This document shows, in pieces, positions 9,001-12,000 of a stretch of DNA of 64,000 nt. Position numbers: made by a program. Origin of the DNA: Escherichia coli (lineage in GTDB: Bacteria > Pseudomonadota > Gammaproteobacteria > Enterobacterales > Enterobacteriaceae); NCBI RefSeq assembly GCF_003991155.1, contig NZ_CP031293.1; one strand, written 5' to 3'. The stretch's first letter is position 1. Each line of letters begins with the position of its first letter.

Positions 9001-12000
9001 CGGCGTCAGGCCAAACTGACGCCGGAAGACGCGACAAAAATAGTCGCTGTCCGGAAAGCCGCAACGCTGCGCCACTTCATGAATCGACAGATGATATTTC
9101 TGCAAAATCATCCTCGCCTTCGCCATTCGCACCCAACGCACATATTCGATAAAACGCATTGTTCCATGCTGCGCAAACAGTTTTGACAGATGATTGGGCG
9201 TGATATTAAAAAACTGCGCCACGCTCTCACGGGTGAGCGGCTGGGCATAATTATCCTGAACCCAGTTACAAATGCTGTGATAGAGAAAATCGCCGCGCGG
9301 CTGCGAATTGCCCGGCGGCATATTCACCACGTTACGGCAAAGATGCAGCAAACTTAACACCAGTGGCTGAATGATATTCTGCTCCAGCGGCGAACGGCTA
9401 AGATGGGTGAGGGCGGTAAGTATCGCTTCACCTTCACCGCGTTGCAGGCTGGGAAGCTGGATCTGGCGGGCAGGATGCAACAACGACGTGGTGCGGCTAT
9501 CGTAAAACGATAACCCAAGCCAGGTCGGTGCGAACACCAGGCTTAACAGCATCACCGGTTTGTTGTTGATCGGTAAATTAGCCGCGCGCGCTGGAATAAA
9601 CAGCATTTCTCCTTCCACCATTCGCTGCTGCTTTGCTTCCAGCAGGTTGCCGTATTCGCCGCGCAGCACGATATCCAGACGGGGAAAATCAATACATAAA
9701 CTGCCCACCGGCAACGAGGCAGGCTGGCTGGCAAACCAGACGCGCCCCAGTAGTTGCGGGTTAAGCACCAGGCCGCTGAACAGATCGGCGAAAAATTGTT
9801 GATCGGCGGGCAAGCCTGGTGCTTTCATGAAAGTTCCCGATTAAAGATGCATTAACTGTCGGAATTCTTTAACTTTGCTGCGGCTGACCGGCACTTCAAA
9901 ATCCAGATCTTTCAGCCGCAGAATATAGGTGTTATTAAACCACGGTTCGATCTCGCGGATTTTGTTCAGATTGACACAAAATGAGCGATGGCAGCGGAAA
10001 AAATGCGACGGCGGCAACTTGCTGCAAAACTCGGTAATGTTCATCGGCATTACGTAGGATTCACGCCGCGTATAGACAAAGGTCATTTTCTCGTGCGCTT
10101 CGGCGTAATAGATATCGTTAATGGGCGTGACGATGATTCGCTCATCTTTCACCAGATTAATGGTGTCATTCTCACGCGTTACCGTCGCGGCAGGCGTACT
10201 GCTGGTCTGCTGTTGTTGCCAGGCTGCTTCCAGTTTTTGCAGCATCCCGGTAATGCGTGACTCCTGATACGGTTTGAGAATGTAGTCAAACGCCTCCAGT
10301 TCAAACGCTTCTACCGCATGTTCTTTCCACGCGGTGATAAACACAATAAACGGTTTATGGGCGAACTGGCTGATGTTTTGTGCCAGCAACACACCATCCA
10401 GCGACGGAATATTGATATCCAGAAAAATGGCGTCGACGCGGTTATGCTGCAAAAACTTCAACACGTCCAGACCGTCGTCAAAGGTGCCGACAATCTCCAT
10501 CTGGCTGTGCTCTTTAATTAGCCAGCTCAGTTCCTGTTGTGCCAGGAATTCGTCTTCAACAATGATGACTTTCACAATATCACTCCGGCTCAAAGCAATA
10601 ACGTAGCCTGTGAGGCGACTGGGGTGCGTTGGTTAGGAATGTAAAACGCAATTTCCGTTCCTGGTTCCAGGCGGCGGATATGCAGCCCCTCGCCATACAA
10701 TAACTTCACGCGATGATGGACATTCAGCAGGCCAATTTTATTGCCCGGCATTTCATTCGCTTCGACCCGCTCAATCACCTTTGGATCGATGCCGTGCCCG
10801 GTATCTCGCACCGCAATACGTACCCGATTACCGCACTCTGCAACGCTGATGGTGACAACGCCTTTACCTTTGCAAGGCTGGATACCGTGGACAATGGCGT
10901 TTTCCACCAACGGCTGGATCAGCAGGCTGGGAATGTAGCAATTCACCTCTTCATCAATATCATAGATAACCGTCAGCTTGTCGCCAAAGCGGGCCTGCTC
11001 AATGGCAATATAGTCTTTAATTTGATATAGCTCTTTTTTGATATCGATTTGCTCATCGTCTTTTAATTCAATGTTATAGCGCAGATAACGCGACAGATTA
11101 AAGATCAGCTGGCGAGCAGTATCCGGATTCAGACGGATTGACGATGAAATAGCGTTCAGAGCGTTAAACAGAAAATTAAAAGGGGATTGAAGGATAAATG
11201 GTGTATTAGCAATGCATCTCTTGATAATGCACATCTGCTTGGTAAATTTATTGAAATTATAATGTTAATAAAATGAGTGGTAATTTTCTTGTTAGCGCAG
11301 ATAAATTTCCTGTTTTTGAAGTGGAGTTCCTCATTTAAAGCCATTGATAAAAATGTTCTAAAACGCTGGACAGACAGAAATTAATCAGGCTATTTTCAAA
11401 ACAGCCACCATCGTGGCAGCGTCGCTCGGACGGTCCGGGCGCTAACGTTAATCTGAGGACATTATGGCTGACACTCGCCCTGAACGTCGCTTTACGCGTA
11501 TTGATCGTCTCCCGCCCTACGTTTTTAACATTACCGCTGAACTGAAAATGGCTGCGCGTCGGCGCGGCGAAGATATTATCGATTTCAGTATGGGTAACCC
11601 GGACGGTGCGACTCCGCCGCATATCGTCGAAAAATTATGTACGGTGGCCCAGCGCCCGGACACGCATGGTTACTCCACTTCACGCGGCATTCCGCGGTTA
11701 CGTCGCGCCATTTCCCGCTGGTATCAGGATCGCTACGACGTTGAAATCGACCCGGAATCAGAAGCCATCGTCACTATTGGTTCGAAAGAGGGCCTGGCGC
11801 ATCTGATGCTGGCGACGCTGGATCACGGTGACACAGTGCTGGTGCCGAATCCAAGTTACCCCATTCATATTTACGGCGCGGTGATTGCCGGGGCGCAGGT
11901 ACGCTCAGTGCCGCTGGTGGAAGGTGTCGATTTCTTCAACGAACTGGAACGCGCCATTCGCGAAAGTTATCCGAAACCGAAGATGATGATCCTCGGCTTC

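Follow-up and report, generated by a model that had tools for sequence, protein, structure and literature searches.

A private 1,200-bp deletion has probably reduced ypdA to a 3' remnant beside an intact ypdB in an Escherichia coli genome

The DNA analyzed here is a stretch of 64,000 nucleotides from the Escherichia coli contig NZ_CP031293.1 (assembly GCF_003991155.1), referred to below as the window. Three features of interest lie on its minus strand: ypdC (8971..9828), the AraC-family regulator gene that stands third in the ypdABC cluster; ypdB (9841..10575), encoding the LytTR response regulator of 244 aa; and, directly upstream of ypdB, an ORF of 214 codons (10590..11234), which had been recognized in a preliminary description of this DNA. 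The alanine transaminase gene alaC (11464..12702, plus strand) is the divergent neighbour of this ORF. Both regulator genes are intact; ypdB starts with GTG, preceded by a GGAG ribosome-binding site of its own, and alaC retains its coding sequence and the 287 bp upstream of it. The order ypdC-ypdB-ypdA with alaC divergent is the same as in intact E. coli, and by this position and its sequence identity the remnant passes as the ypdA locus and orthologue. The genes yhjX and btsS are located outside the 64-kb window.

The endpoints were defined base by base against E. coli 2016C-3878 (NZ_CP029747.1) and against the K-12 derivative NEB5-alpha, and in both of these references YpdA is a protein of 565 aa encoded at the same position. 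The NEB5-alpha gene confirms the length that the preliminary description gave for K-12, and on alignment K-12 ypdA is not equally short. The native part of the gene in the window (10590..11176, minus strand) begins with the second base of codon 371 and runs through codon 565 to the stop codon; it is 100 % identical to 2016C-3878 over 587 nt and 97.9 % identical to K-12. The remnant had been called the C-terminal half of the kinase, which overstates it: 194 of 565 aa remain, the C-terminal 34 %.

Truncation by deletion, as the preliminary description had proposed, is borne out by the alignments to both references. Against 2016C-3878, 1,377 and 525 perfectly matching bases flank a gap that measures 1,200 bp exactly and takes in positions 2963845-2965044 of that record, and the K-12 derivative gives the same endpoints with flank identities of 97.9 % and 96.6 %. 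The joint lies at 11176|11177, with one base (T) assignable to either side and therefore an ambiguity, or microhomology, of 1 nt. The removed DNA comprises 89 bp upstream of the ypdA start and nt 1-1111 of the 1,698-nt coding sequence. The break accordingly separates the first base of codon 371 from the other two, and codons 1-370 are lost together with that base. Codon 371, the CAT (His) of the motif K-I-N-P-H-F-L-F-N-A-L-N, thereby becomes AAT (Asn). This change accounts for the reading PFNF noted earlier in place of the expected phospho-acceptor context, and the suspicion that the joint lies at or near the H-box was correct. On the other side of the joint, 287 bp (11177..11463) of the 376-bp ypdA-alaC intergenic region are kept. 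An AT-rich non-coding stretch of about 230 bp had been described before alaC; its composition holds (63 % A+T), but the native intergenic DNA measures 287 bp.

Both flanks run into native sequence without any inserted base. The joint is in unique sequence, no repeat flanks the gap, and no IS ends, scars, REP elements, or direct or inverted repeats were found at the endpoints. Neither an FRT or lox scar nor IS or prophage sequence nor a terminal repeat, as left by deletions of those kinds, is present at the joint. Repeat-mediated (slipped-strand or short-homology) deletion is marked by direct repeats of several bp of which one copy is kept, and here the two ends have no more than 1 nt in common. 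The 7-mer GGGGATT was considered as a cause and rejected, since its copies do not line up at the joint: one adjoins the left breakpoint, and the other follows the right breakpoint at a distance of 5 nt. The deleted segment was not found elsewhere in the window by blastn or tblastn, as it would be after a translocation within it.

The 214-codon ORF is a composite. Its ATG and codons 1-19 are supplied by 58 nt of former intergenic DNA (11177..11234, minus strand; natively -90 to -147 from the ypdA start) that happen to be in frame, codon 20 is the hybrid Asn, and codons 21-214 are identical to native YpdA codons 372-565. The first codons had been judged not to look kinase-like, and 19 of them are indeed of intergenic origin; the same DNA also replaces Pro370 of the H-box by Phe. 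In the intact genome, this ATG is the start of an ORF of 39 codons, absent from the annotation, which ends before ypdA is reached. The ATG position reads AAG in K-12 and in E. coli OkiPb01677, and the start codon is therefore a lineage-specific accident; for the same reason, the 39-codon ORF of intact relatives (ATG at 11234) is probably meaningless. No Shine-Dalgarno-like sequence was found before the ATG of the 214-codon ORF.

The domain content of the product was compared with that of the full-length protein, in which Pfam models identify 5TM-5TMR_LYT at residues 28-192, GAF at 226-343, His_kinase (DHp) at 359-438 and HATPase_c at 456-553. The membrane sensor domain 5TM-5TMR_LYT (PF07694) matches neither the 214-aa product nor the rest of the window; the N-terminal sensor is thus lost, as had been claimed, and the 89 bp upstream of the start went with it. 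GAF has no match in the remnant. The His_kinase model (PF06580) is covered at positions 14-81 of 81 in the remnant, as against 1-81 in the full-length protein; the C-terminal two-thirds of the DHp domain are kept. HATPase_c (PF02518) is present at residues 105-202 (E = 2.2e-11). In LytS-type kinases the conserved phospho-acceptor His sits between Pro and Phe (PMC10653868), and no His stands in that context in the remnant. The H382Q variant of the YpdA paralogue BtsS cannot be phosphorylated (PMC10653868). Judging by the domain losses and by the behaviour of this variant, the remnant would be unable to sense pyruvate, to enter the membrane or to autophosphorylate. The ORF is a chance in-frame fusion and a pseudogene remnant rather than a shortened kinase, because membrane sensor, GAF domain and phospho-acceptor are all missing from it. 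With its incomplete DHp domain in addition, it does not qualify as a functional LytS-type (HPK8) sensor histidine kinase. In annotation it fits the label of a ypdA pseudogene fragment, not that of a protein-coding "ATP-binding protein".

Promoter-like sites are taken here strictly as matches to the sigma-70 consensus. The deletion has spared the best of those on the ypdA strand, TTACCA-16-TATAAT (11283..11256); this site matches the consensus at 10/12 positions and lies 22 nt upstream of the ATG of the ORF, and its -10 element reads AATAAT in K-12. A weaker site was inside the deleted 89 bp, and another weak one is located within the remnant (10987..10959). Both promoter-like sites on the alaC strand are retained in the 287 bp; a literature search for mapping of the alaC (yfdZ) promoter returned nothing usable. 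Two terminator-like hairpins that overlap each other and carry T-runs are seen on the minus strand at 11388-11420. They lie upstream of the 11283..11256 site, shortly before the start of alaC, and are conserved in all four of the strains aligned. Since ypdB keeps its GGAG and GTG, ypdC is untouched and the best promoter-like site is retained, it is plausible from the sequence that ypdB and ypdC continue to be transcribed from this candidate site or from within the remnant.

The frequency of the allele was examined by megablast of window positions 9800-11700 (1,901 bp) against 5,426 complete E. coli genomes. The region is present in 5,422 of them and, among the matches listed, always matches in two segments that together extend over about 3,100 bp, annotated ypdC / ypdB / ypdA / alaC. 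The deleted 1,200 bp occur at a coverage of at least 80 % in 5,420 of the genomes, and a 200-bp query centred on the joint has a contiguous match in none of the 5,426. The 33-mer across the joint, GCGTTAAACAGAAAATTAAAAGGGGATTGAAGG, was looked for as an exact match in JGI metagenome contigs and GTDB species-representative genomes and found in neither, and a look-up of the 214-aa product among 153 billion gene positions gave no record of it.

Apart from the gap, which is the only structural difference, the 64-kb window is identical to 2016C-3878 but for two G>A transitions. The first of these, at 7379, is private and changes the PTS multiphosphoryl protein FryA (annotated ptsP-like) by A303T; the public protein collection has no entry for the resulting protein, whereas the reference FryA allele, looked up there as a control, returned 1,892 blocks and stands beside a 565-aa YpdA in the place listed. 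The second, at 22518, is a private synonymous change in evgS (Leu955, CTA>TTA). For the first 25 kb of the window, at least 12 strains share the top score, all with the extra 1,200 bp; they come from humans, cattle, chicken, dog and wastewater on several continents. Farther along, at about 33467-44296, annotation transferred from 2016C-3878 places the phase-variable autotransporter adhesin gene upaE (7.9 kb) beside the tyrosine invertase genes ipuA and ipuB. With the joint, the 214-aa product and FryA A303T all absent from the collections searched, the deletion is private to a genome that those collections do not contain.

Several readings of this locus can be weighed. That ypdA is equally short in normal E. 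coli, with nothing missing, can be discarded, since YpdA has 565 aa in both K-12 and 2016C-3878 and 5,412 of the 5,426 complete genomes span the longer version. The favoured explanation, held with moderate confidence, is that the window carries a private loss-of-function allele of ypdA produced by a single deletion of 1,200 bp. It has a serious competitor, less probable but with a substantial share of the probability, in which the deletion is not biological and the living strain has an intact 565-aa YpdA, the gap stemming from an assembly or consensus error, a sub-population of the culture or an edit made after assembly. This second reading is kept in play by the round length, the homology-free joint and the absence of the allele from every collection searched. 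Only about 1 natural deletion in 100 has a length that is a multiple of 100 bp; the two sides meet cleanly, with microhomology limited to 1 nt and neither repeat nor IS nor scar between them; all of the at least 12 otherwise identical genomes are intact; and neither joint nor product occurs in any collection searched, so that no independent genome copy confirms the deletion. Moreover, the natural ypdA deletion examined, that of OkiPb01677, is repeat-mediated. Against an artefact, however, collapse in assembly affects repeats and not unique coding sequence, and 1.2 kb of unique sequence is seldom dropped; the present gap has no flanking repeat. The two private transitions are expected of a genuinely distinct, unsampled isolate and, together with the position of the joint in unique sequence, speak for a real deletion. 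So do the natural structural losses of ypdA in OkiPb01677 and 2013C_3653, both of which keep ypdB and ypdC intact. Homology-free deletions do occur in E. coli, and a round length is unlikely but not impossible.

A different question is whether the 214-aa ORF could encode a functional, soluble, truncated kinase-like protein, expressed from the retained promoter and modulating YpdB or BtsS by ATP binding or in a dominant-negative manner. It is open and in frame, its HATPase_c domain is complete, and the 10-of-12 sigma-70-like site precedes its ATG by 22 nt. Nevertheless, the phospho-acceptor His and the first 13 positions of the DHp model are gone, there is no Shine-Dalgarno sequence, and the ATG is a chance codon of the lineage, read as AAG in K-12 and OkiPb01677; in addition, a private allele has no selection history. 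Such a function is therefore extremely improbable, and the idea of a functional shortened kinase was rejected on account of the missing His, the missing ribosome-binding site and the lineage-specific chance ATG. Scarcely more credible, and also very unlikely, is a real and adaptive deletion that rewires signalling, with ypdB and ypdC kept under a retained promoter and YpdB and yhjX left solely under the high-affinity pyruvate sensor BtsS, with cross-talk that the soluble CA-domain fragment lacking His might modulate.

Under the favoured explanation of a real private deletion, one event would have taken the 89 upstream bp, the ribosome-binding site, the start codon, the 5TM-5TMR_LYT and GAF domains and the beginning of DHp up to the first base of the His371 codon, and the remaining 3' end of ypdA would have been fused by chance, in frame, to intergenic DNA. 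If biological, the event would be a recent one in a single isolate and would represent illegitimate, homology-independent end-joining, given a joint without repeat, IS or scar. The expected phenotype would be loss of the yhjX induction mediated by YpdA, which responds with low affinity to pyruvate in the millimolar range.

YpdA/YpdB is one of the two LytS/LytTR pyruvate-sensing systems of E. coli, with yhjX as its target (PMC5552118), and is interconnected with BtsS/BtsR (PMC5552118, PMC6545925). In the uropathogenic strain UTI89, yhjX is reported to be induced in response to pyruvate and acid by BtsS acting with YpdB, its non-cognate partner (PMC9765748, citing Steiner et al. 2018). The preliminary description had concluded that YpdAB would be non-functional and ypdB orphaned. 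As far as the sequence goes, the cognate kinase is indeed lost; however, going by the UTI89 report (PMC9765748), YpdB may act with BtsS. By analogy with uropathogenic E. coli, YpdB may thus still be usable through BtsS in the lineage of the window, provided that ypdB is transcribed, and any residual YpdB activity would rely on cross-phosphorylation by BtsS. An "orphaned" YpdB, on this analogy, need not mean a silent one.

If the deletion is real, the isolate is a natural ypdA-null, ypdB-positive strain of a widely distributed E. coli lineage. It would then allow a test of how much of YpdB/yhjX signalling passes through BtsS outside UTI89, and could show whether loss of the low-affinity sensor alters the scavenging of overflow pyruvate, acid responses or the yhjX-linked adaptation to aminoglycosides (PMC9765748, PMC6545925). 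Otherwise, the two-component system is one that can be dispensed with and is absent from whole genera such as Salmonella (PMC5552118), and the decay of one of its genes is routine. ypdA is a known gene at a known locus, inactivated by a simple deletion; the allele is unrecorded and the type of event routine, and nothing suggests a new system or mechanism.

The nearest known counterpart is intact ypdA (pyrS) of 2016C-3878 and K-12, which encodes the pyruvate-sensing LytS-type kinase of YpdA/YpdB (PyrS/PyrR) and shares locus and gene order with the window; relative to it, the window is without the 89 bp upstream, the start codon, 5TM-5TMR_LYT, GAF, the early part of DHp and His371. Other losses of the system are known. 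Salmonella naturally lacks YpdA/YpdB (PMC5552118), and in this genus, as in laboratory ypdABC deletion mutants (PMC10653868), the whole system is absent, whereas the window has lost the kinase only and keeps the regulator genes. Such natural lackers and deletion mutants indicate that YpdA/YpdB is dispensable, with BtsS/BtsR remaining as pyruvate sensor.

Among E. coli strains, OkiPb01677 (NZ_AP042483.1) has an independent chromosomal deletion of ypdA, with ypdB, ypdC and alaC intact as in the window (3984-4433 of the excerpt of that locus), and loss of ypdA is thus an event that recurs in E. coli at low frequency. The OkiPb01677 deletion removed 1,638 bp within the coding sequence, nearly all of ypdA, between 11-bp direct repeats AAGCA(A/T)TAACG. 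It is a textbook short-homology joint, whereas the 1,200-bp deletion of the window reaches into the promoter region, with homology of 1 nt at its joint. Strain 2013C_3653 (NZ_CP074866.1) resembles the window in carrying a 3' fragment of ypdA beside an intact ypdB, annotated there as a partial "ATP-binding protein". The break (4791-5979 of the locus excerpt, equivalent to window position 10912) leaves 321 nt of ypdA, and its cause is the insertion of a Mu-like prophage, whose mom and com genes adjoin the break; the window, by contrast, carries no mobile element.
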